Source: Patescibacteria group bacterium
Lineage (GTDB): Bacteria > Patescibacteriota > Saccharimonadia > CAILAD01 > JADZBC01
Length of the DNA stretch: 64,000 nucleotides
Direction: 5' to 3'
NCBI GenBank assembly: GCA_052034495.1
Contig: JBPOIL010000003.1
Location: 18,345-82,344 of the forward strand
Positions 2,605 to 44,233 of the stretch are shown here, one piece after another. A program made the translations under genes and the position numbers. Under the pieces are notes generated by a model. The model was not told the origin of the DNA and searched no databases. It saw only the letters and a list, made by a program, of their open reading frames with translations. Positions within the stretch are counted from its first letter, which is position 1. Each line of letters starts with the position of its first letter.

Positions 2605-3633
2605 TTAGGCCTTTTTAAGCTGGTAGGTTGCCTTGGCAACTCGTTCGAACTGCGGTTTTTCCTGCAGATTGAGAGCGATAGTCGTAACTTTGACTTGTCG
2701 ACGCGCGAGAACGCGGCGTACGATTTCGTCTTTTGTTAGAGGCGACTCTTCTTTAAGAATCCCTTCTATGATATCAGCTACCGTACCTGCTTGGTAGCCC
2801 CATTCCGCTAATGCATAAATGCCGCGGCCGATCAGTACAAAGCGTTTATCTTTGATGAGTTCGTTGTGTACAGCTTGGGTAGTTACCTTCTTAGGATTCG
2901 CCTGAACTTGATCTAGTTTCGCAGCGATGTCAGAAAAGTGCATTGGTCGACCGTTCTTTTTGAGTACCAAATAGACTTTATCACGGATACTCTTTGGATT
3001 GACTTCTGGCCAGTGGCTTAAGCCCCAGTTTTCTTCTAGCTCTGCCATCTTGGCAGATGCATGGGCAATTTCCATAAGTGAGTCGGCCTTATGCGGGCCA
3101 TCAATCTTGCCTGCAATACGCTCGAATCTACCTGGCTTACCAAGTTCTTTGGTTGTGCTAAGGATGAGTTGATGTAGCTCTTTTACATCCTCCTCGCTAT
3201 ACACTTCGGCATTCACGACAAGACTATCGAGCAAGTCGTTCTTATCGAGGTAGTAGAACTTCGGGTTGGTACGGATAATAAAACTAAGTTCGGCAGCTAG
3301 TTCCTGGTCAGTTAGGCGACCGACTACTTGTTCAAAGCGAATTACGCCACCCTTTTTGTCGATTATAGCAATAAGTGTGTTCGAGAAATCAGTATTAATC
3401 TCGTTTTCTTGGCGAATACGGGCAAGGGCTGCCTTTTCAATCTGTCGGACGCGCTCACGAGTAATACCAAGCTGCTGGCCAATTTGTTCGAGCGTCTGCG
3501 GTTTATTGCCAAGCACACCGTGGCGCTTCGTCAGAACTTCGCGATCACGATCCTTGCGCAGGACTTCGAGCGAGGCTTCGATCATAGTCCTGAGGTCTTC
3601 TAGGTTGTATTGAATGTTGTTAGTTTTATCCAT
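2605..3633 (-). CDS. Sigma-70 region-4-like HTH protein with a long C-terminal domain that looks winged-helix/HARE-HTH-like. Not a complete sigma factor.
   Basis: The N-terminus (REVLTKRHGVLGNKPQTLEQIGQQLGITRERVRQIEKAALARIR) matches the sigma-70 region 4.2 consensus. Regions 2 and 3 are absent. The C-terminal segment IRDKVYLVLKKNGRPMHFSDIAAKL...RFVLIGRGIYALAEW resembles wHTH/HARE-HTH. Confidence 0.5.
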   Translation of the reverse strand: MDKTNNIQYNLEDLRTMIEASLEVLRKDRDREVLTKRHGVLGNKPQTLEQIGQQLGITRERVRQIEKAALARIRQENEINTDFSNTLIAIIDKKGGVIRFEQVVGRLTDQELAAELSFIIRTNPKFYYLDKNDLLDSLVVNAEVYSEEDVKELHQLILSTTKELGKPGRFERIAGKIDGPHKADSLMEIAHASAKMAELEENWGLSHWPEVNPKSIRDKVYLVLKKNGRPMHFSDIAAKLDQVQANPKKVTTQAVHNELIKDKRFVLIGRGIYALAEWGYQAGTVADIIEGILKEESPLTKDEIVRRVLARRQVKVTTIALNLQEKPQFERVAKATYQLKKA

Positions 3634-3783: not shown

Positions 3784-6087
3784 CTACTTTTTACGGCGCG
3801 GGCGGGCTTTTTTATTGGGGGCTTCGGCAATAATCTGTTTGGCTTGCTCGAGGGTAATGTTTGCTGGGTCTGTATTCTTGGGCGGCTTAGCATTCTTTTT
3901 ACCATCCGTTACATATACCCCGTAGCGACCGTTGATGATGTCGATGCCTTCTTTCTCAAAACGCTGAATATACTTTGCTGCTTCAGCCTTTTGCTTTTCG
4001 ACAATAAGTTCGCGGGCGCGATCTAGGGTTATGTCGAATGGACTCTCGGGCTTAATTGAAACGAAGAGTTTGCCAATCTTTACATACGGACCGAACGGTC
4101 CGATGTTCGCGAGGATTTCTTGGCCATCGCTCGTTTGGCCGACCGTGCGGGGTAGCTTAAACATTTCGAGGGCTTCATCCAACGTAACTTCCTCGAGCCT
4201 CTTGCCTTCAGGCATTGGTGCAAAGGTAGGCTTATTCTCCTTGTCTTCAGTACTGCCCATCTGTAGCATCGGCCCGTATTTACCGAACCGAGCCAGGATT
4301 GGTTTGCCGTTTTTAGGGTGTACACCTATCTCTCGCGCTTGCGCCACGGCAGAACGGTCAATTCCCCCAGATGCCGCAATCAGAGCGTGAAACGGCTTAT
4401 AGAAGTGCGTGAGCATATCATTGCGGGCCAGTTTGCCTTCAGCGATGTCGTCAAATTCCTTCTCGACGTCAGCAGTAAAGCCATAATCAACGACTTTCTC
4501 GAAGTAATCAGTCAGGAAGTCACTAATCAGTTCTCCACTTGGCGTCGGCACGAGTTTGCCCTTGTCGGAGCCGGTCTTTTCTTCAATAACTTCCCGCTCC
4601 AACTTTTTATCTGCCAAATTGAGCACAATCACTTCGCGCGGCGTTCCTTCGCCCTCGCCTTTTATGGCATAACCACGGGCCTGGACGGTGGAAATTATCG
4701 TGGCATAGGTGGATGGTCGGCCAATCCCAAGCTCTTCGAGCTTCTTGACTAAGCTACCTTCGCTGTATCTGGCAGGTGGTCGGGCAAATATTTGCTTGGC
4801 TTGGGCGCTTTGCATCTCGAGCACCTGGTCAGCTTCGAGCGGAGGCAGGATGTCAGGGTCTTTCTTGCTGCCGCCATATACCTTCATAAACCCATCGAAT
4901 ATCACAACTTCACCCTTTGCCTCGAAGCTCTCTTTGCTGCTCGATATAGTAATCACAGCCGTAGTGCGTTCGAGTTCTGCCGGCGCCATCTGACTCGCAA
5001 GTGTACGTCGGCGAATCAAATCGTAGAGCTTTTGGTCGTAAGCGTTTGCACTCGCCTTCTCCGCCCGTACATCTGTGGGACGGATCGCCTCGTGAGCTTC
5101 TTGGGCGCTCGCCGACTTGGTTTTAAACGTGCGCAAATTATGATACTTGTCGCCAAACTCACTCTTTATATAGTTAGTAATTTGGCCAAGTGCTTGCTTG
5201 CTTAGGTTTACCGAATCAGTACGCATGTAGGTAATCTTACCTTCCTGGTAGAGCTTTTGGGCAGCCGACATGGTCGCTTTGGCGCTAAAGCCCAGTCTGC
5301 TATTGGCATCCTGCTGCAAGGTACTGGTAGTGTAGGGCGCTCCAGGGTTGCGTTTGCTCGGGCTGGTCGTAACTTTCGACACGCTAAAGTTGGCATCGAG
5401 CAGGCTCTTTAGGAACGCTTCGGCTTCTGCTTCGCTGGCGAAGCGTTTAGGTAGCTCGGCTTTAAATGCTTGACCGTCATGAATGAATTCAGCAGTAATT
5501 TTAAACTCCGATGAACCTTCGAAGGCTCGGATTTCGCGTTCACGCTCTACAAGTAAACGTACTGCCGGGGACTGCACGCGCCCAGCCGATTTTCCTCCTG
5601 GTACCTTTTGCCACACTACTGGTGAGAGCTCAAAGCCTACTATGCGATCCAGAATCTGCCTGGCCTGCTGGGCTTCTACTAGGCTCATATCGACCGTGCG
5701 AGGCTCTTTTACTGCTTCACTAATGGCGTCTTGGGTGATTTCGTGGAATACAATGCGCTTTGTGTTTTTGGGGTCAAGCCCAAGTACCTCGCACAAATGC
5801 CAGGCAATAGCCTCTCCTTCGCGGTCTTCATCGGTAGCCAGCCAGACGGTATCGGTTGCTTTCACTGCTCGCTTTAGCTCGGTGATCACCTTTTTCTTCT
5901 CAGGATCGACCTCGTAGACTGTCTTAAAACCATTGTCTACATCAATCGTTTTGCTGCCATCCTTAGTCTTTTTGGCAATTGAGCGAATATGGCCAATACT
6001 CGATAATACCTGGAAATCTTTGCCCAGGTACTTTTCTATGGTCTTTGCCTTTGCGGGGCTCTCTACGATAACGAGGTTTTTGCTCAT
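3784..6087 (-). CDS. topA: DNA topoisomerase I
   Basis: The 767-aa product has a TOPRIM N-terminus (MSKNLVIVESPAKAKTIEKYLG) and the topoisomerase IA core; length and order are typical. Confidence 0.9.
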   Translation of the reverse strand: MSKNLVIVESPAKAKTIEKYLGKDFQVLSSIGHIRSIAKKTKDGSKTIDVDNGFKTVYEVDPEKKKVITELKRAVKATDTVWLATDEDREGEAIAWHLCEVLGLDPKNTKRIVFHEITQDAISEAVKEPRTVDMSLVEAQQARQILDRIVGFELSPVVWQKVPGGKSAGRVQSPAVRLLVEREREIRAFEGSSEFKITAEFIHDGQAFKAELPKRFASEAEAEAFLKSLLDANFSVSKVTTSPSKRNPGAPYTTSTLQQDANSRLGFSAKATMSAAQKLYQEGKITYMRTDSVNLSKQALGQITNYIKSEFGDKYHNLRTFKTKSASAQEAHEAIRPTDVRAEKASANAYDQKLYDLIRRRTLASQMAPAELERTTAVITISSSKESFEAKGEVVIFDGFMKVYGGSKKDPDILPPLEADQVLEMQSAQAKQIFARPPARYSEGSLVKKLEELGIGRPSTYATIISTVQARGYAIKGEGEGTPREVIVLNLADKKLEREVIEEKTGSDKGKLVPTPSGELISDFLTDYFEKVVDYGFTADVEKEFDDIAEGKLARNDMLTHFYKPFHALIAASGGIDRSAVAQAREIGVHPKNGKPILARFGKYGPMLQMGSTEDKENKPTFAPMPEGKRLEEVTLDEALEMFKLPRTVGQTSDGQEILANIGPFGPYVKIGKLFVSIKPESPFDITLDRARELIVEKQKAEAAKYIQRFEKEGIDIINGRYGVYVTDGKKNAKPPKNTDPANITLEQAKQIIAEAPNKKARPRRKK

Positions 6088-6227
6088 GTCTTTGTAATGC
6101 TAATGCTTATAGGTTTGCTTTGCAAGTTAATATAGTTTGCCGACTTGAATGTTGGCTTAAAGTCACAATCAGAGACTATACAGAGTAGGCTTGGCATTGT
6201 CAAAGAGACATATAGTGTCCAAATGTA

Positions 6228-6256
6228 TTGACATTATCTATCAATTATTGTATCAT
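6228..6256 (+). promoter_or_regulatory. Sigma-70-type promoter (TTGACA, 17 nt spacer, TATCAT) upstream of the alpha-CTD-like gene
   Basis: TTGACA at 6228-6233 and TATCAT at 6251-6256 with a 17-nt spacer, about 44 nt upstream of the RBS AGGAGAAG and the ATG at 6300. Confidence 0.35.
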
Positions 6257-6299
6257 TCTGCTCAGTCCATGACCTATTGTCTATCTCGAAGGAGAAGCC

Positions 6300-6845
6300 A
6301 TGGAAGACCGAGATACCAGAATTGCGCGTCAAGCGCACGAAGCTGCCATCCGTTTGGCAGCAGAAGCATTCGTTGCCCTGGCAGCCGGCAAGGTTCCGCC
6401 AAGCTTGGAGTTCTCGGCGGACATCTTGTTCGTCGCCGACCTGGGGCTGAGCGACAAGCCCAGCCGCTTGTTGGCCGAGCAGGGCATCGAACTCGTCGGC
6501 GACCTGGTTCGCCACAGCGAGGACGACCTCCTCGTCATCATCGGCTTTGGGGAGAAGTCGCTCGATGAGGTGAGGGCCAGGCTCGCCGAGCACGAGCTCA
6601 CCCTGAAGGGCTCTGAGCTGCCTGCTCCGACTCCGGTGCAGAACCTGCGCTTCAGTGCTGTTGTGCTTCGGCGCTTCGCCAGGGGAACGTTCAGGCTCGA
6701 CGGTACGTACGTCCCCATCGAGACGGTCGAACAGCTCGTTCGGCTGTGCGCCGATGACCTCCTCACGATCCCCGGTTTCGGCCAGGCCTACCTCAGGCAG
6801 GTCGAACAGGTACTTGCCCGCCACGGCAAGTCCCTGCGCCAGTAG
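6300..6845 (+). CDS. Standalone protein made of two tandem RNA polymerase alpha-subunit C-terminal-domain-like (alpha-CTD) helix-hairpin-helix modules; high-GC islet gene
   Basis: RBS AGGAGAAG precedes the ATG. Both halves (LSDKPSRLLAEQGIELVGDLVRHSEDDLLVIIGFGEKSLDEVRARL and LRFSAVVLRRFARGTFRLDGTYVPIETVEQLVRLCADDLLTIPGFGQAYLRQVEQVL) resemble RpoA CTD (SVRSANCLK...GDLV...ELLK.PNLGKKSL.EI). GC3 is high on the + strand; the overlapping minus ORFs 6234-6824 and 6329-6766 are low-complexity antisense. Confidence 0.55.
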   Translation: MEDRDTRIARQAHEAAIRLAAEAFVALAAGKVPPSLEFSADILFVADLGLSDKPSRLLAEQGIELVGDLVRHSEDDLLVIIGFGEKSLDEVRARLAEHELTLKGSELPAPTPVQNLRFSAVVLRRFARGTFRLDGTYVPIETVEQLVRLCADDLLTIPGFGQAYLRQVEQVLARHGKSLRQ

Positions 6846-6874
6846 GTGGCACCTTCGCTTCAGGCGGACGATTC

Positions 6875-6904
6875 GATCGCTCCTCCTGGGGCGATCTTTC
6901 GTTT
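6875..6904 (+). terminator. Rho-independent terminator (GATCGC stem, tcctcctgg loop, GCGATC stem, then TTTCGTTT)
   Basis: Hairpin at 6875-6896 followed by a T-rich run, 30 nt after the stop of the 6300-6845 gene. Confidence 0.4.
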
Positions 6905-7763
6905 AAGAGGTCAAAACCCACTGGCCAGCGCCGATGTTCCGAACCTTGCCAGTTATTTCCATTAGGCTCAGCATGCCGGCGATCTTTTCGGCAGGAATGT
7001 CACTCTTTTCTATTAGGTCGTGCGTAGTATGGCTACCCGCATCTATGAGCTCCATGAGTCGCGCCTCTTCTGCAGAATCTGCCCTTCGCTTCTTTGGCTT
7101 TACTAACGTGCTTTGTAGGCCGAGTTCGGACAGTATATCTACTGCGTCTAGTACTGGCTTGGCGCCACATTTGAGTAAGTTATTTGGCCCCGCTGAGCGC
7201 GGGCTCGTGACGTTGCCAGGTACAGCCATGACCATGCGGTTCTCCTGCAGGGCGAAGTTGGCTGTAATAAGCGATCCGCTACTGGCGTTGGCTTCTGTAA
7301 TGACGGTAGCAAGGCTGAGTCCGGCAATTATCCTGTTGCGAGCCGGAAAGTTTTGCTTAAACGGTGTGGTGCCTTCGGGGTATTCACTTATAACGCCGCC
7401 GCCAGAAGCCACTATCGCTTTGAATAAGTGGAAGTTTGACCTGGGCGAAGGTGCGTCTAGGCCGCTCGCTAGAACCGCCACAGTCGCACCGCAAGCATCA
7501 AGCGCAGCCTGATGAGCAATTGCGTCTACCCCGAGTGCCATACCGCTTACTATGCATATACCTGCACGGGCTAGATCGTAGGCCAGCCGGTACGTTATTT
7601 GCTTGCCGTAGTCTGTAATTGCCCTACTCCCCACTATAGCTACCATTGGCAGATCAGGTACGTTGCCGACTACATATAGCTCCTTGGGCGGAGCCGCAAT
7701 ATCGCGCAAAAGAGCAGGATATTTGTTGCTATTGTATCGTATATATTGCATAGGATTATCCAT
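6903..7763 (-). CDS. dprA: DNA processing protein DprA (Smf)
   Basis: 286 aa; Rossmann-like DprA core with VVSGMALGVDAIAHQAALDACGATVAVLASGLD. Confidence 0.85.
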   Translation of the reverse strand: MDNPMQYIRYNSNKYPALLRDIAAPPKELYVVGNVPDLPMVAIVGSRAITDYGKQITYRLAYDLARAGICIVSGMALGVDAIAHQAALDACGATVAVLASGLDAPSPRSNFHLFKAIVASGGGVISEYPEGTTPFKQNFPARNRIIAGLSLATVITEANASSGSLITANFALQENRMVMAVPGNVTSPRSAGPNNLLKCGAKPVLDAVDILSELGLQSTLVKPKKRRADSAEEARLMELIDAGSHTTHDLIEKSDIPAEKIAGMLSLMEITGKVRNIGAGQWVLTS

Positions 7764-7813
7764 GATCTAACCTGTTAAGCATAAATAGTATAAAACTATC
7801 CCTGTAAAAAGTG

Positions 7814-7842
7814 TTGACAAAAGCACTAAGGTATGTTAGTAT
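7814..7842 (+). promoter_or_regulatory. Near-consensus sigma-70 promoter (TTGACA, 17 nt spacer, TAGTAT) firing into a gene-free intergenic region
   Basis: TTGACA at 7814-7819 and TAGTAT at 7837-7842; no + strand ORF downstream before the terminator at about 8100. Confidence 0.35.
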
Positions 7843-7845
7843 ACG

Positions 7846-8100
7846 TAGGCTCTTATAAAGCCATGTAAAAACGGCTCAAACGAGAGTGCACCTCACACAA
7901 AACTCACCTCATTATTGAAGTGAGTAATCTGCTCTCGAGGCTAAACCTAAAACTCACCCTCCTTTAGGTTCTCGGAGCAGATTACTCCCTTTAATTGCCA
8001 CGGTCTACTTATTACTATAGCGACTGCAAAATCCCAAACTTCGGGGGCATTAGAGGGTGTTAAAACGGACTCGACTCCTTTATTGAAGCGAGTCTTTTTT
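7846..8100 (+). ncRNA. Candidate structured small RNA of about 250 nt with unknown family
   Basis: Bounded by the 7814-7842 promoter and the 8068-8100 terminator. Contains an extended hairpin of about 80 nt (GAGTAATCTGCTCTCGAG at 7922-7939 pairing with CTCGGAGCAGATTACTC at 7972-7988, with an inner ACCTAAA/TTTAGGT stem) and a repeated motif TTATTGAAG[TC]GAGT (about 7908 and about 8079). No ORF is present. Confidence 0.25.
8068..8100. terminator. Intrinsic terminator (GACTCG stem, 15-nt loop, CGAGTC stem, then TTTTTT), probably bidirectional
   Basis: Stem at 8068-8073/8089-8094 with a T6 run on the + side; on the minus strand a TTTT run follows the hairpin downstream of the pth stop at 8151. 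Confidence 0.5.
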
Positions 8101-8150
8101 AATTCTAAAGTGTTCGCTTTTTGATTGCTAGTCTAGAAGGCAATTTTTGG

Positions 8151-16560: not shown

Positions 16561-17202
16561 CTAGGCATTGTGTTGTTCAATGGTGAAAACATGAGCTTGG
16601 TCGGCGTGAGATTCTGGTGAGAGCAGAAGTAGCTCGGAGTTGCCAAAGTGGAACTGCTGCAGGACTTGCTTCCAGTCGAGATTATAGTATGAAGCATATA
16701 TCATCTTTCCGAAGTCGCCGTGCGTTACGAGTAATATAGGGCCGTCATTATGCATGCTTTTAAGCTCAGCAAGGTACTTGTGTGCTCGATCGAGTAAGTC
16801 TGGAAAGGTTTCGGCTCCTTCGGGTTCCAGGAAGTATGTTATGAGTTCGGCTTTGAGTATTTTTGGAGCACAGAGCTCCTCTACTCTACTTGCCTCCACT
16901 CCGGTCATTATCCCGAAGTCTCGCTCTATAAGTAATGGCTCGACGACTGGTTTCGGACCATGAATAGCATCACAAATAATTTCAGCAGTTTGTTTGGCTC
17001 TAGAAAGTGGCGAGGTATAGATCCGGTCAAAGCTTAGCTTGGCGTTTTTTATCTCACCAGCAACTTCCTCGGCTTGCTCTACTCCCTTTTGGGTAAGAGG
17101 TTCGTCGCGGTGGCCATTCAGTATGCCATTGGCGTTATCTACGTTCTGCCCATGGCGGGCTATGTATATCTTTAGCATCCACTCATTATAGCAAAACCTC
17201 AA
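16561..17202 (-). CDS. Histidine phosphatase family protein (phosphoglycerate mutase-like)
   Basis: RHG motif IYIARHGQN...; the true start may be the internal M (MLKIYIARHG). Confidence 0.75.
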   Translation of the reverse strand: MRFCYNEWMLKIYIARHGQNVDNANGILNGHRDEPLTQKGVEQAEEVAGEIKNAKLSFDRIYTSPLSRAKQTAEIICDAIHGPKPVVEPLLIERDFGIMTGVEASRVEELCAPKILKAELITYFLEPEGAETFPDLLDRAHKYLAELKSMHNDGPILLVTHGDFGKMIYASYYNLDWKQVLQQFHFGNSELLLLSPESHADQAHVFTIEQHNA

Positions 17203-21106: not shown

Positions 21107-21574
21107 CTACTTGCTGTCCTCGTCTGGGACGTCGGGGGCGGGTGCCCAGACGATGATCACGTGGTCCGTGCAGTGCCTGCTGGTGACCACGTCGAGGGCC
21201 GCCGGTGCGGCACGCCAGGCGACCCTGTAGCCGTCCTGCACGAGCATCTGCTCCACGAAGTCCTGCTCGCCCGAGGACAGGCGCACAGTCACTGTGACCT
21301 TGTGATCCGGGTCCTGAGCGGCGATGATCTCCTGCCGGATGGCGTCGGTGATCTTGGCGAACTCCAGCTCCAGGCTGTTGGGCTCGTGGGCGGCCAGCCA
21401 GCGCGCGCGGTAGGCGCTTGGCAGGTCGGACGCGAAGTAGCTGAGTCGAGCGTCGCTGGGCACCTCGCGCAGAGCGGATGCCATGTCTTCCGCGAGGTTC
21501 ACACCCCCTGCTTCTCTCACCAGCTGCTGCCAGGCTTCGTTGCTCTCCCACACTGGGGCTTCGTCATCGTGCAT
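21107..21574 (-). CDS. High-GC islet gene: 155-aa hypothetical acidic protein
   Basis: ATG at 21572-21574 with the RBS AAGGAG seven nt upstream. The + strand ORFs (21071-21589) and the minus ORF 21033-21551 are Arg/Gly-rich antisense artefacts. Confidence 0.45.
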   Translation of the reverse strand: MHDDEAPVWESNEAWQQLVREAGGVNLAEDMASALREVPSDARLSYFASDLPSAYRARWLAAHEPNSLELEFAKITDAIRQEIIAAQDPDHKVTVTVRLSSGEQDFVEQMLVQDGYRVAWRAAPAALDVVTSRHCTDHVIIVWAPAPDVPDEDSK

Positions 21575-22068
21575 GTGCACACTCCTTGATCGGTTGTAGG
21601 CCAAACCCCATTATGCCTTGCTGCGAATAGGCCCGCAAGCATGATCTTTGTAGCTCTCCCCCGTGACATTCGAATATCCTGGACGTGGTTCGGAGTACTC
21701 AGAACAGAACGCTCGAGGATTGTCTGAGTCTGGCCCCAGGCGAGTCCCGTAGAGCACTTCTGTTTGAGTACGGAGAAGCACCGCCAAGAGATGAGCCCCA
21801 TGTCGCAAATACTTTTGACTACTTTTGGTATGTTCAAAAGTAGTAGGTATTGATTGTTTAGATTAAGTTACTTGTTCTTTTGAAAGGGCCAAAAGAACCT
21901 AAAGCCCTTCCGGCCATTGTCCTCGCATCAAGTGGTTCATTCAAGAAGAAATATATGGATTGATCTGCGGGGTTCGCTTGGATGCCAAGCTCTGCAATCC
22001 TCACTCATCCTTATATTCTTCTTTCACTCACGTCTTAAGCTGCGGGTGGCCGGGGCGGCAGTAAAGGC

Positions 22069-32386: not shown

Positions 32387-32971
32387 ATGGCAAAGGAAAA
32401 GAAGAAGTCCAAGAAGTCCAAGAAGGGCAAGAGCAAGAAGGGTTCGGGCAAGCTGCCCAAGAAGAGCCCCAAGGTGACGAAGCTCAAGGCTCCGGACAAG
32501 AAGGGTCCTGACAAGAAGTCCAAAAAGGGCAAGAAGAAGGCCGCCGCCGAGGTGCCGACCGGAGACATCGACCTCTCCTCCGTGATGATCACGGAGCTGG
32601 TTCGGAATCGCATCTGCAGCGAGCTCAAGCTCACTCCCCAAGAGACTGGCTACATCACCAAGGTGATCACTTCGGTCTGGGTGTCTGTTGACATCGTCCA
32701 GCAGGAGCCGATCGGCAACAGCGACAGCCCGCTCATGCCCGCACGGACGGGAGAGAACCGGGCGGTCGACCTGGGGACGCTGGCCAAGGTCGTCTCGTTC
32801 CCGGAACTCCAGCGCGAGGTGCGAGGCGTCCTTCGCCAGGCGCGCCGGGCGTCCTTCGTTGGGCCCAAGGGTCTGGCCGTCCTCGAGCGCTTCGTGGACA
32901 AGGCCAAGAAGATCATCATCTACCAGAGCCCCCGTCCAGACCATGACGGAGATGGCGGCGGTTCCGAGTAG
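32387..32971 (+). CDS. High-GC islet gene: 194-aa protein with a histone-H1-like lysine-rich N-terminus and a globular C-terminal domain
   Basis: RBS AAAGGAG; the N-terminal ~55 aa are KKSKKSKKGKSKKG repeats, followed by a non-repetitive domain. Confidence 0.55.
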   Translation: MAKEKKKSKKSKKGKSKKGSGKLPKKSPKVTKLKAPDKKGPDKKSKKGKKKAAAEVPTGDIDLSSVMITELVRNRICSELKLTPQETGYITKVITSVWVSVDIVQQEPIGNSDSPLMPARTGENRAVDLGTLAKVVSFPELQREVRGVLRQARRASFVGPKGLAVLERFVDKAKKIIIYQSPRPDHDGDGGGSE

Positions 32972-40107: not shown

Positions 40108-40524
40108 ATGACCATCACCGAACCGGACGTCGCAACCGCGGCGACCATGCCCACCCCGTACCCCGACACCATCAGCCCCCGACCCACCATCGACCAGATC
40201 CGCAGCGCGATCATGAAGCAGACCGGCTGCAGCAAGCGTCGGGCTCGTCGCTTCATCGCCTTCCTGCGCGACCAGATCTCCTGCGCACGCAGCGAGGATG
40301 GCTACGGGCCGGTCCACCTCACGCAGGAGGAGATCGACGAGTTCCACCCGATGCTCGAGCTGGTCATGCCCGACGACACGGCGTCCACGCCGGGTTCCGC
40401 TCACGACCTGATCGAGCGCGGCCTGCTCAGCGCTCACCGCGGCGAGCTGTCCATCACCCACACCAAGGGCGGGCCGACGGCCGAGGACTGCGTCACCGTC
40501 GTCGAGGTCCACAAGGTCGGCTGA
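40108..40524 (+). CDS. High-GC islet gene: 138-aa hypothetical protein
   Basis: RBS GGAGGTGG nine nt before the ATG; GC3 above 90%; followed by a strong terminator. The minus-strand ORF 39973-40590 is an Arg/Gly/Asp-rich antisense artefact. Confidence 0.5.
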   Translation: MTITEPDVATAATMPTPYPDTISPRPTIDQIRSAIMKQTGCSKRRARRFIAFLRDQISCARSEDGYGPVHLTQEEIDEFHPMLELVMPDDTASTPGSAHDLIERGLLSAHRGELSITHTKGGPTAEDCVTVVEVHKVG

Positions 40525-43543: not shown

Positions 43544-44233
43544 ATGGAGCTGACAAGCATGGAGAAAAGACGGCGGGCTTGGGCCGCAGAGCAGGACCCA
43601 CCACTGGTCACAGTGCAACAGGTGGCCGAGATGCTGGGTCACCAGCGCGGTACGTACGTGCGGCGGATCATGGCACATTACGAGGTCCCTCATCTGCTCT
43701 CTGACTCCAGGGACGCGGATTTCCGAGAGGGCGACGGCTACTATCCATTGCTGGAGGCTCGAGCCGCAGTGGGTAAGTACTTGGTCGATAGGCCACGTAT
43801 GCCCGGTACCCGAACCGCTGGTCCGAAGCCGGCAAGTGCGCTTACCCGCCTGGGTGGCGTGACTGTGCCGTTGTCGGCTCCGCACGGTTGGACCCTCGAT
43901 CAGCTCAAAATCTGCTGGAAGGATTCCCCAGACATGCGGGGCGTCGTTGAGCAGATCTACGAGCGTTGTCCGTCCTTTACGCAACTGACCTTCGAGGAGG
44001 CCAAGGCCTTGGTTGTGGACTTGGCGCAACCAGACATGGCCCCGCAGCTGATGCATCCGCCCTACGAGCGAAGCGACTTCATGCGGGCCGCGAGAGAGCT
44101 GACTCGCGGCAAGCCGGATGAGCTCGCGCAGCTGACGAGGGTGTTGGAGGGCAAGTTCCACCTGCGCAACTTCTGCAGGATCAACCCGGGTCCGGCCGTG
44201 GCCGTCGTCCTCGAGCTCCTGCGCAGCAAGTAG
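43544..44233 (+). CDS. High-GC islet gene: 229-aa protein with an N-terminal HTH (excisionase/AlpA-like)
   Basis: RBS AGGAG; LVTVQQVAEMLGHQRGTYVRRIMA helix-turn-helix; terminator at 44266-44299. Confidence 0.5.
   Translation: MELTSMEKRRRAWAAEQDPPLVTVQQVAEMLGHQRGTYVRRIMAHYEVPHLLSDSRDADFREGDGYYPLLEARAAVGKYLVDRPRMPGTRTAGPKPASALTRLGGVTVPLSAPHGWTLDQLKICWKDSPDMRGVVEQIYERCPSFTQLTFEEAKALVVDLAQPDMAPQLMHPPYERSDFMRAARELTRGKPDELAQLTRVLEGKFHLRNFCRINPGPAVAVVLELLRSK

Follow-up and report, generated by a model that had tools for sequence, protein, structure and literature searches.

On bacterial RNA polymerase, activators and UP elements dock mainly at the C-terminal domain of the enzyme's alpha subunit (alpha-CTD). 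Proteins harbouring this domain (PF03118) without the RpoA core are common in metagenomes, and no experimental work on such proteins was found. In an exhaustive search 1106 representative clusters were collected, among them many of alpha-CTDs only, with 2–11 repeats, or of TPR fusions, and NCBI uses a generic name, 'RNA polymerase alpha subunit C-terminal domain-containing proteins'. The uncharacterised members comprise 2–11-repeat arrays, TPR+2xCTD fusions, the beta'-CTD fusion PRK14906 and the 95-aa PRK07758/NF005841. Standalone alpha-CTD folds also occur in mobile genomes, as seen in BFVD for uncultured Caudovirales (105–135 aa), Rhodococcus phage Finch (240 aa) and Mycobacterium phage Mithril (149 aa). 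Keyword searches of the literature turned up neither a publication about standalone alpha-CTD proteins of bacteria or phages nor a described function. The earlier, sequence-only reading of the present locus, that standalone tandem alpha-CTD proteins form no described family, therefore holds for the literature searched but not for sequence space, considering the 1106 clusters, the NCBI name and the phage proteins in BFVD.

The locus analysed here belongs to a member of Candidatus Saccharibacteria (CPR) and is situated in a stretch of 64,000 nucleotides (the window), where a 181-aa protein with two alpha-CTD-like domains, d1 and d2, is encoded between topA and dprA. Both domains share the fold of the RpoA alpha-CTD, and d1 is 38–53% identical to real alpha-CTDs. 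The protein differs from RpoA in having two CTDs in one chain and no N-terminal dimerisation/core-assembly domain, in being encoded outside the S13-S11-S4-rpoA-L17 operon (rpsM-rpsK-rpsD-rpoA-rplQ), and in a second domain that carries a 10-residue insert (a beta-hairpin at residues 131–138 in the structural model) and lacks R265, K298 and S299. With the uncharacterised PF03118 proteins it shares core-detached, often tandem modules of similar spacing; the domain identity is however only 30–44%, none of them has the N-terminal helix or the d2 insert, and with 33.8 bits against a cut-off of 115 in the NF005841/PRK07758 model the protein is not a member of that group.

The similarity to the BFVD phage proteins is structural and at the domain level only (15–33% identity). 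No relative was found by tblastn in 50,697 phage genomes (INPHARED) or in a scan of IMG/VR, so that the proposed search for actinophage homologues yielded structural cases but no sequence homologue. The best PHROG match, phrog_34844, is marginal (E = 2.8e-4) with no stretch significant alone. A phage or plasmid origin was rejected, since nothing appeared in INPHARED or IMG/VR and the plasmid matches were to rpoA only; a defence system was likewise rejected, the protein matching 0 PADLOC families.

In another clade of Saccharibacteria the same dprA-topA gap holds a family of 380–389 aa (ORF 4711–5859 of locus L075; P0283–P0286), whose C-terminal part likewise consists of a degenerate and a canonical alpha-CTD module. 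It is encoded on the opposite strand relative to its neighbours, has a 250-aa N-terminal region of no assigned kind and carries its degenerate and canonical modules in the reverse order. The 265 determinant is present there with all six residues, and over 108 aa the identity to the window protein is only 28%.

Two alpha-CTD folds in one short protein

The protein is encoded on the forward strand at 6300..6845 (ATG start, stop at 6843–6845) and starts with an amphipathic helix (residues 4–28, 6309..6383) predicted with medium confidence (pLDDT ~54–66), followed by d1 (residues 45–105, 6432..6614) and d2 (residues 113–181, 6636..6842). The Pfam model RNA_pol_A_CTD (PF03118) matches two stretches of the protein with E = 2.1e-16 and 59.8 bits against a cut-off of 23.8, and an alpha-CTD HMM of our own detects both d1 (iE 8.6e-23) and d2 (iE 3.7e-12). 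Among the PDB sequences almost all matches are RpoA CTDs, and d2 by itself matches the Thermus RpoA CTD with E ~1e-3. The AF2 model (mean pLDDT 75.5, 74–92 in the domains) contains two compact five-helix modules of the (HhH)2 type (SCOP a.60.3), and its top Foldseek matches are the alpha-CTD chains 8y5t_A2, 1z3e_B, 1lb2_E and 7vpd_S (TMt 0.88–0.91, rmsd 1.1–1.4 Å), bearing out the two alpha-CTD-like modules seen from the sequence at the outset. The superposition covered the model as a whole, and the fold of d2 is assigned from its helix pattern, Pfam and the Thermus match.

Pfam gave no match to the RpoA N-terminal domain (PF01000/PF01193), the NCBIfam rpoA equivalog TIGR02027 scored 47.9 bits against a cut-off of 227.8 and the best other NCBIfam rpoA model 55.3 bits against 434, in agreement with the earlier claim that the assembly domain is absent. 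The window contains no homologues of S13, S11, S4 or L17, the gene neighbours being topA and dprA. By assembly domain, score and operon alike, the protein appears not to be a bona fide RpoA. No signal peptide or secretion motif was seen at the N-terminus on inspection, and a small cytoplasmic protein, consisting of an N-terminal helix and two alpha-CTD folds with nothing to dock onto the polymerase core, is a well supported description.

The second domain contains a classical HhH hairpin (IPGFG). In the family formed with the positional orthologue in a related Saccharibacterium (locus L087), no other part is conserved as well as this domain, which has the invariant motif PI.TVEQLVR...DDL..IPGFG.A.L..V.QVLAR. 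Its charge is not conserved: d2 has a pI of 10.2 in the window protein and 6.35 in the orthologue, while the pI of d1 is 4.6 and that of the whole window protein 5.4. Pfam HHH_5 also matches the protein (E = 1.4e-7), and at E <= 1 the Pfam matches include only the generic HHH_5 and HHH_8 and not ComEA/TfoX_C (PF12836, PF04994 and related families).

For d1 the closest RpoA CTDs are those of Acidimicrobiales-type Actinomycetota (52–53% identity). All named database matches are from Acidimicrobiales/Actinomycetota (51–55% identity, loci with a GC of 0.69–0.70), and in PDB Streptomyces and Mycobacterium score 37–39 bits compared to 27 or less for other phyla. The same RpoA type is matched by the window d1, d1 of the L087 orthologue and the L075 domain, all at 51–56% identity. 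This common likeness of three independent Saccharibacterial domains could reflect the RpoA of Saccharibacteria themselves; no rpoA was found in the window or in the retrieved Saccharibacteria loci.

The residues of the 265 determinant were compared using the sequence and numbering of the E. coli alpha-CTD, in which they are R265, N268, C269, G296, K298 and S299. At these six positions d1 of the window protein has K,R,L,G,K,S, thereby keeping G296, K298 and S299 with a lysine in the position of R265, and d2 has V,R,R,G,A,Y, with R265, K298 and S299 replaced by V, A and Y. In the L087 orthologue the corresponding residues are G (R in a variant),S,C,S,A,C in d1 and R,Y,L,G,A,S in d2. Each protein thus has one domain with part of the determinant, and no domain keeps the set in both orthologues. 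Since the canonical residues contacting UP elements are not conserved between the two, competition for UP elements, the simplest form of the decoy first suggested, seems unlikely as judged from these positions.

The gene at 6300..6845 and the dprA-topA gap

The coding sequence has a GC content of 0.634 and the coding-type values 0.70/0.41/0.79 for GC1/2/3 (GC3 0.786), compared to a GC3 of 0.52–0.57 in the neighbouring genes. It lies in a compositional islet with a GC of 0.63–0.65 against ~0.51 across the whole window. The islet is not unique, since about eight further stretches of the window exceed 0.60 GC; no Pfam or PHROG match to the other small GC3-rich ORFs of the window could name a donor.

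Upstream of the gene a σ70-type promoter-like site (TTGACA-17-TATCAT, 11/12 matches) is located at 6228..6256 on the forward strand, back-to-back with a putative topA promoter (TTGACA-17-TATAGT, 6175..6203, reverse strand) that falls within the stretch still homologous to L087. Promoter-like sites in the region number three in total, against an expectation of 0.4. The promoter is followed by an AT-rich 5' UTR (6257..6299) in which the sequence contains the RBS AGGAGAAG at 6290–6297. A terminator-like hairpin with a T-tract (6875..6905), common to the 3' end of dprA, spans 6875–6896 and continues into TTTCGTTT; on its own this signal is weak, since a single such site is about the number given by shuffles. 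The gene is divergent from topA and convergent with dprA.

The L087 orthologue occupies the same site in the same orientation, with 37–39% protein identity and a host-like GC content, and its locus can be aligned with the window over the -10 box (TATCAT), the 5' UTR with its GGAGAAG, the RBS, the start codon, the N-terminus and the terminator, which is duplicated there. The duplicated terminator in L087 flanks two extra ORFs. The promoter, RBS and terminator first noted for the gene are all present, and the -10 box, RBS and terminator are shared with the orthologue. The segment 6205..6863, which is the compositional islet, lacks blastn-level homology to L087 except for a 60-nt match at 6722–6781. 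Because the orthologue shares the regulatory DNA, the window gene is best seen as a resident accessory gene in a GC-rich allelic form and not as a new insertion, and a recent one-off foreign insertion was ruled out on the same ground. The high-GC, single-gene islet first proposed between topA and dprA is compositionally distinct as described, without being a novel foreign insertion. No convincing flanking direct or inverted repeats were found in the window, and the terminator in L087 is the sole duplication observed.

Long ORFs arise in several frames where DNA is GC-rich, and antisense ORFs of 196 aa (6234..6824) and 145 aa (6329..6766) are present here. That the former is the true gene, or that the region is non-coding, is nevertheless extremely improbable: neither antisense ORF has a Pfam match while the forward frame has a strong one, the forward protein is conserved in L087 although the DNA has diverged, promoter and RBS are both on the forward strand, and the highest GC3 and lowest GC2 are those of the forward frame. 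The opposite-strand ORFs were thus ruled out, and the coding strand of the first reading was upheld. An assembly chimera was ruled out as well, the same gene, context and junctions being present on six independent metagenome contigs, and the ORF is intact on seven contigs from two lineages. The source samples are JGI 3300043411, SRR24011142, SRR24011144, SRR34217543, SRR34217545, SRR35185575 and ERR14064715. That 6300..6845 is a real and expressed-looking gene is well supported by these sequence features.

The synteny of dprA and topA is kept in ~60 Saccharibacteria loci, with a gap of 96 to 3906 bp and unrelated ORFs inside; the gap is a variable hotspot. The neighbourhood gives no functional link, since other lineages have unrelated genes in this place. 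Next to topA, a conserved gene encodes a σ70-region-4 + HARE-HTH protein (2605–3633 in the window). A gene for a T4SS coupling protein is found 3.7 kb from the tandem alpha-CTD gene.

A profile search of 5.8 billion proteins placed the family in two clusters, both from Saccharibacteria, and no members beyond P0001 and P0010/P0152 were found in this search, in the scan of GTDB species representatives or in a JGI metagenome scan. It is well supported that this is an accessory, lineage-restricted gene in Candidatus Saccharibacteria, where just two lineages were seen to have it. Comparing the window and L087, the tandem alpha-CTD protein is 37% identical against 79% for TopA, 75.5% for DprA and 60% for Pth, indicating that the gene diverges much faster than its neighbours. 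Two lineages ~11% divergent nonetheless share the GC-rich allele, with only four differences in a tract of 833 nt (6071..6903), which is read as the mark of a recent recombination or sweep. In this pair dS is 0.007 in the tandem alpha-CTD gene and 0.49–0.71 in the flanking genes; because of this difference it is well supported that the whole locus has lately moved between lineages by homologous recombination. GC-biased gene conversion is unlikely as the cause of the high GC, since the AT-rich UTR shares the recombination tract. The between-strain amino acid differences (R18C, V25A and D41N) all fall in residues 18–41, upstream of d1, and dN/dS is ~1, a value from four substitutions, a number at which it has no statistical power.

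Possible function of the detached alpha-CTDs

The reading favoured here, with low confidence (a probability of about 40%), is that the protein acts as a polymerase-detached, alpha-CTD-like adaptor modulating transcription in the Saccharibacterium itself. Such an adaptor would bind to proteins that the real alpha-CTD contacts (activators, sigma region 4) or to promoter-near DNA, and this occupation would tune transcription in the cell. Since the contact set is not conserved and conservation is highest in d2, which has a generic HhH hairpin together with an insert specific to the family, protein binding or non-specific binding to the DNA backbone is a more likely conserved activity than sequence-specific competition for UP elements. 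The second alpha-CTD family in the same gap of another clade and the σ70-region-4 + HARE-HTH protein encoded beside topA are further points in favour of the adaptor. The acidic d1 and the whole-protein pI are not typical of a DNA binder and speak against the adaptor, as do the dN/dS of ~1 and the neighbourhood with its missing functional link.

About half as probable is a generic HhH DNA-binding factor, working with DprA, TopA and the T4SS in DNA uptake, recombination or topology (a ComEA/TfoX-like role) and unrelated to RNA polymerase. The hairpin of d2 (IPGFGxAxL), its basic character in the window allele, the HHH_5 match and the position of the gene, with back-to-back promoters towards topA and convergent with dprA, are consistent with this. 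In other lineages, however, the gap contains unrelated genes or none, Pfam matches neither ComEA nor TfoX_C nor any further DNA-uptake family, the orthologous d2 is not basic and the whole protein is acidic. Somewhat less probable again is a remnant that is nearly neutral or has no function, in which the 3' part of an rpoA gene, once duplicated, persists in a recombination-prone hotspot, and to which the very fast divergence, the lost DNA-contact residues, the dN/dS of ~1 on few recent changes and the extremely narrow distribution would point. Yet the ORF with its two-domain layout and d2 insert is kept, together with promoter, RBS and terminator, though synonymous sites are saturated, an invariant 30-residue motif remains in d2, and the allele has spread between divergent lineages.

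The hosts of cultured Saccharibacteria are Actinobacteria, and the protein might instead imitate the alpha-CTD of the actinobacterial host and, after delivery, act on host transcription or regulators, maybe having been captured from host rpoA. The best RpoA matches to d1 being from Actinomycetota, the GC3 of the window allele, the nearby T4SS coupling-protein gene, and a fast divergence and recombinational spread typical of conflict genes agree with this, as does the obligate epibiont lifestyle of cultured Saccharibacteria, which are described as growing on host bacteria. Against it, the native GC and shared regulatory DNA of the L087 orthologue indicate that the family is resident in Saccharibacteria, the RpoA-type likeness of the three Saccharibacterial domains could mirror their own RpoA, the N-terminus has no signal peptide or secretion motif, and the identity to any actinobacterial CTD is only ~50%; this makes a host-directed mimic improbable. 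Slightly less probable still is a free, actinobacterial-type double alpha-CTD which the obligate episymbiont would have kept, diversified and exchanged between strains as a mimic intercepting activators, of the host or its own, or promoter DNA while it lives on its host.

The finding is an ordinary one if the protein merely binds DNA as generic HhH proteins do, or if it is a remnant in drift. If the mimic just described is true, it would be a transcription-machinery decoy in the parasitism of one bacterium on another and the first function for the alpha-CTD-only class, and in its host-directed form, which is less likely, the protein would stand for an interbacterial effector class that is new. 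Should the polymerase-bound alpha-CTD be mimicked or competed with, this would be a new regulatory principle. As a compact two-domain case in a genome-reduced CPR episymbiont, the protein is a tractable entry point to the role of detached alpha-CTDs, because it combines clear expression signals, a comparable orthologue and signs of rapid evolution and recent spread.

Two alpha-CTD modules in a protein with its own expression signals

The alpha-CTD gene, at 6300..6845 on the forward strand, starts with ATG and encodes a protein of 181 aa in which a Pfam search recognised PF03118 (RNA_pol_A_CTD) in two stretches, d1 and d2, with E=2.1e-16 and 59.8 bits (gathering score 23.8), together with the generic HHH_5 family. 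The sequence-only reading had made itself dependent on such a profile match. When searched against PDB sequences the matches were nearly all RpoA chains, covering residues ~30-110, the best being those of Streptomyces coelicolor and Mycobacterium tuberculosis (E ~1e-8), with actinobacterial RpoAs scoring ~10 bits above every other phylum, and d2 by itself (residues 108-181) matched a Thermus alpha-CTD at E ~1e-3. An AlphaFold2 model (input alignment of four sequences, mean pLDDT 75.5) displays an N-terminal helix (4-28), a disordered linker and five-helix modules at 45-96 and 113-174, the second with a small beta-hairpin insert (131-138). In Foldseek against the PDB alpha-CTD chains ranked first, with target-normalised TM 0.88-0.91 and rmsd 1.1-1.4 A. 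The N-terminal domain of RpoA was not found in the protein, which scores 48-55 bits with the NCBIfam rpoA equivalogs compared with cut-offs of 228-434.

The gene is preceded by a promoter-like TTGACA-17-TATCAT (6228-6256, forward strand, 11/12 consensus matches) and, directly 5' of the ATG, by the RBS AGGAGAAG (6290-6297, forward strand), and followed by a terminator-like hairpin (6875-6896, forward strand). Its GC is 0.634 (GC1/2/3 = 0.70/0.41/0.79), while GC3 of the neighbouring genes is 0.52-0.57. On this evidence of domains, structure, expression signals and composition the alpha-CTD feature is genuine, and the sequence-only reading was right in describing two alpha-CTD modules without the RpoA assembly domain, encoded with their own promoter, RBS and terminator in a one-gene high-GC islet between topA and dprA.

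The gene is one member of a set of small genes with foreign composition. About eight more islets in the window exceed GC 0.60 in 546-nt windows (17.2-17.8, 20.8-21.8, 26.0-26.8, 31.7-33.3, 34.6-35.2, 39.9-40.8, 42.0-42.8 and 43.5-44.7 kb), and at least seven further small ORFs share the GC3-rich signature (GC3 0.76-0.91), for example 21107-21604 on the reverse strand and 32387-32971, 40108-40524 and 43544-44233 on the forward strand; in these ORFs no recognisable domains and no Pfam or PHROG matches were found.

The dprA-topA locus and the origin of the GC-rich allele

The window's TopA shares 81% identity with that of one Candidatus Saccharimonadia MAG and 55-74% with those of ~80 other Saccharibacteria (TM7) genomes, which assigns the window to a CPR/Patescibacteria episymbiont. 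The 181-aa protein was found in none of 185,579 GTDB species representatives but, identical or 98% identical, on six metagenome contigs, all with the gene order topA, alpha-CTD gene, dprA, pth, der; this identical layout rules out an assembly chimera. Adjacency of dprA and topA is kept in ~60 Saccharibacteria loci. The spacer can be as short as 96 bp or as long as 3906 bp, carries numerous unrelated, lineage-specific ORFs and acts like a hotspot of integration or variation.

Other features of the window were also noted. On the same strand as topA (reverse) lie the gene of a VirD4/TraG/TrwB-type T4SS coupling protein (1-2595, extending past the window start) and a gene for a 342-aa protein with sigma-70 region 4 (E=1.8e-14) and HARE-HTH (E=1.6e-9) at 2605-3633. 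The latter keeps its place near topA in Saccharibacteria and has a weak PADLOC match to MzaA; it is an orphan transcription-initiation piece, separated by 2.7 kb from the likewise orphan alpha-CTD gene, and the arrangement of both genes beside topA is conserved in other Saccharibacteria loci. The intergenic region between dprA and pth (7764-8150, forward strand) has ~3 mismatches in 316 nt between two lineages, with dS of 0.5-0.7 in the flanking genes. A TTGACA box occurs at 7814 and a hairpin resembling a terminator at ~8063-8100. The region folds with -84.1 kcal/mol (7845-8105, z=-6.4), had no fitting Rfam family and is a candidate for an unannotated structured small RNA. Both a SAM riboswitch (RF00162, 36122-36225, 50.7 bits, exceeding the gathering score) and a 213-aa ORF (16561-17202) matching phrog_12933, a phage family of unknown function (E=3e-27), are located on the reverse strand.

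When 1.84 billion cluster representatives were searched exhaustively with HMMER, a single full-length relative of this architecture emerged, a 190-aa protein (P0010/P0152) sharing 37-39% identity with the window protein (39% over residues 1-181). P0152 is encoded at 2688-3260 on L087, a contig of a related Saccharibacterium (TopA 79%, DprA 75.5% and Pth 60% identical), in the same position and orientation, divergent from topA. Homology at blastn level ends at window positions 6204 and 6864, and direct alignment extended it to TATCAT of the -10 box, the greater part of the 5' UTR, the RBS GGAGAAG, the ATG and N-terminal residues; the terminator hairpin is also common to both. With this shared site and regulatory DNA the two genes are positional orthologues. 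The hairpin occurs twice in L087, where a ~50-nt direct repeat of the terminator region (3240-3330 and 4500-4650) encloses a 1.3-kb segment of GC 0.56, absent from the window, whose two ORFs (120 and 164 aa) have no known function.

As a positional orthologue the window gene represents one allele of a gene resident at this site, and a new insertion is ruled out. The L087 gene matches its own genome in composition (GC 0.515, GC3 0.57), and the unusual point is that the composition of a high-GC genome is limited to the window coding sequence alone. Since the recombination tract also includes the AT-rich UTR, GC-biased conversion is an unlikely cause; the simplest donor would be a Saccharibacterium of higher GC that carries this locus.

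Compared with the lineage represented by contigs L001-L004, the window is ~89% identical in the flanks (dS of dprA 0.49, pth 0.71, der 0.59), while the 833 nt at 6071-6903, the longest low-divergence tract within the comparable 10.7 kb, contained only four differences, all in three codons (R18C, V25A, D41N), giving the alpha-CTD gene a dS of 0.007. This low divergence between diverged flanks shows that the locus was very recently transferred between, or swept through, the two lineages, by homologous recombination that ended within topA on one side and at the stop codon of dprA on the other. In the longer term the protein has diverged far more quickly than its neighbours, with 37% identity to the L087 orthologue against 60-79%. 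The best conserved region is d2 (46-49%), in which PI.TVEQLVR...DDL..IPGFG.A.L..V.QVLAR is invariant and an insert of 10-11 residues is common to both proteins.

Relatives among alpha-CTD-only proteins

The exhaustive search returned 1106 representative clusters at E<=1e-3, and the best-scoring clusters are not RpoA but proteins that consist of 2-11 alpha-CTD repeats or that carry two alpha-CTDs behind TPR repeats. NCBI annotates such proteins as 'RNA polymerase subunit alpha C-terminal domain-containing protein', and NCBIfam holds a standalone 95-aa family (NF005841) and a beta'-alpha-CTD fusion (NF011498), so that the alpha-CTD-only architecture is not unusual in sequence space. The earlier statement that no standalone tandem alpha-CTD family is described thus held for function, our literature search finding no functional study of any standalone alpha-CTD protein, but not for the databases, where many exist. 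Neither profile searching among 5.8 billion proteins nor scanning JGI metagenomes added a member to the two clusters of the window family, and neither 50,697 phage genomes nor IMG/VR contained a sequence homologue. Phage-encoded alpha-CTD proteins, among them those of Rhodococcus and Mycobacterium phages, are present in BFVD. In plasmids only rpoA was matched, and no PADLOC model matched.

In a different clade of Saccharibacteria the dprA-topA gap is filled by a second, unrelated-looking alpha-CTD family of 380-389 aa (L075 4711-5859; L091 919-2061; proteins P0283-P0286). It differs in having a 250-aa N-terminal region of unknown nature followed by one degenerate and one canonical alpha-CTD. 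The DprA of L075 is 65% identical to that of the window, above other loci (37-51%), while its TopA is only 57% identical.

Possible function and domain origin

The E. coli UP-element contact set, which we take to be R265/N268/C269/G296/K298/S299 in a numbering that agrees with the domain alignment, reads K, R, L, G, K, S in window d1 and V, R, R, G, A, Y in d2, and G, S, C, S, A, C and R, Y, L, G, A, S in d1 and d2 of L087; P0010 and P0152 differ by a single residue, R/G, at the d1 position equivalent to R265. The canonical CTD of the L075 family keeps 6/6. No domain retains the set across the orthologues, d1 is acidic in both (pI 4.6-4.7), and d2 is basic in the window only (pI 10.2 versus 6.35; whole window protein 5.4). 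Since this determinant is unconserved and the constrained part of the family is the generic HhH hairpin with the family-specific insert, a simple role as UP-element competitor seems unlikely, and a decoy function is a hypothesis. Two options follow: a detached alpha-CTD-like adaptor, which would bind alpha-CTD partners such as activators and sigma region 4, or a protein that would bind DNA non-specifically. We favour, with a probability of about 0.4, a transcription-modulating adaptor working inside the Saccharibacterium, each mechanistic step of which we infer.

A generic DNA-binding HhH factor is rather unlikely, and a nearly neutral remnant somewhat more so; the dN/dS of ~1 comes from four recent changes, a sample too small for statistical weight. 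The hosts of cultured Saccharibacteria are Actinobacteria, and d1 is 51-55% identical to RpoA CTDs bearing the signature LSERPRNCL...NFGQKSLDEV, named members of which are Acidimicrobiales/Actinomycetota with loci of GC 0.69-0.70. With cultured members described as obligate epibionts on host bacteria, this closeness makes a host-derived mimic directed at the host attractive. However, the same RpoA type is equally close to L087 d1 (51%) and the L075-family CTD (56%), and the three domains are 36-44% identical to one another, less than each is to that RpoA; domains that descend from the slowly evolving RpoA of the Saccharibacterium itself would also be expected to show this pattern (no rpoA was found in the window or compared loci), and we consider the mimic improbable. 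Least probable by far is a mis-called gene, as the opposite-strand frame raised beforehand was not borne out and none of the region's three further long ORFs has a meaningful Pfam match.

The window protein represents a very narrow new family inside a known, uncharacterised class of alpha-CTD-only proteins, and what is new is its CPR episymbiont host, its place in a variable hotspot, the GC-rich allele restricted to the coding sequence, the speed at which it diverges and the recency of its spread by recombination.
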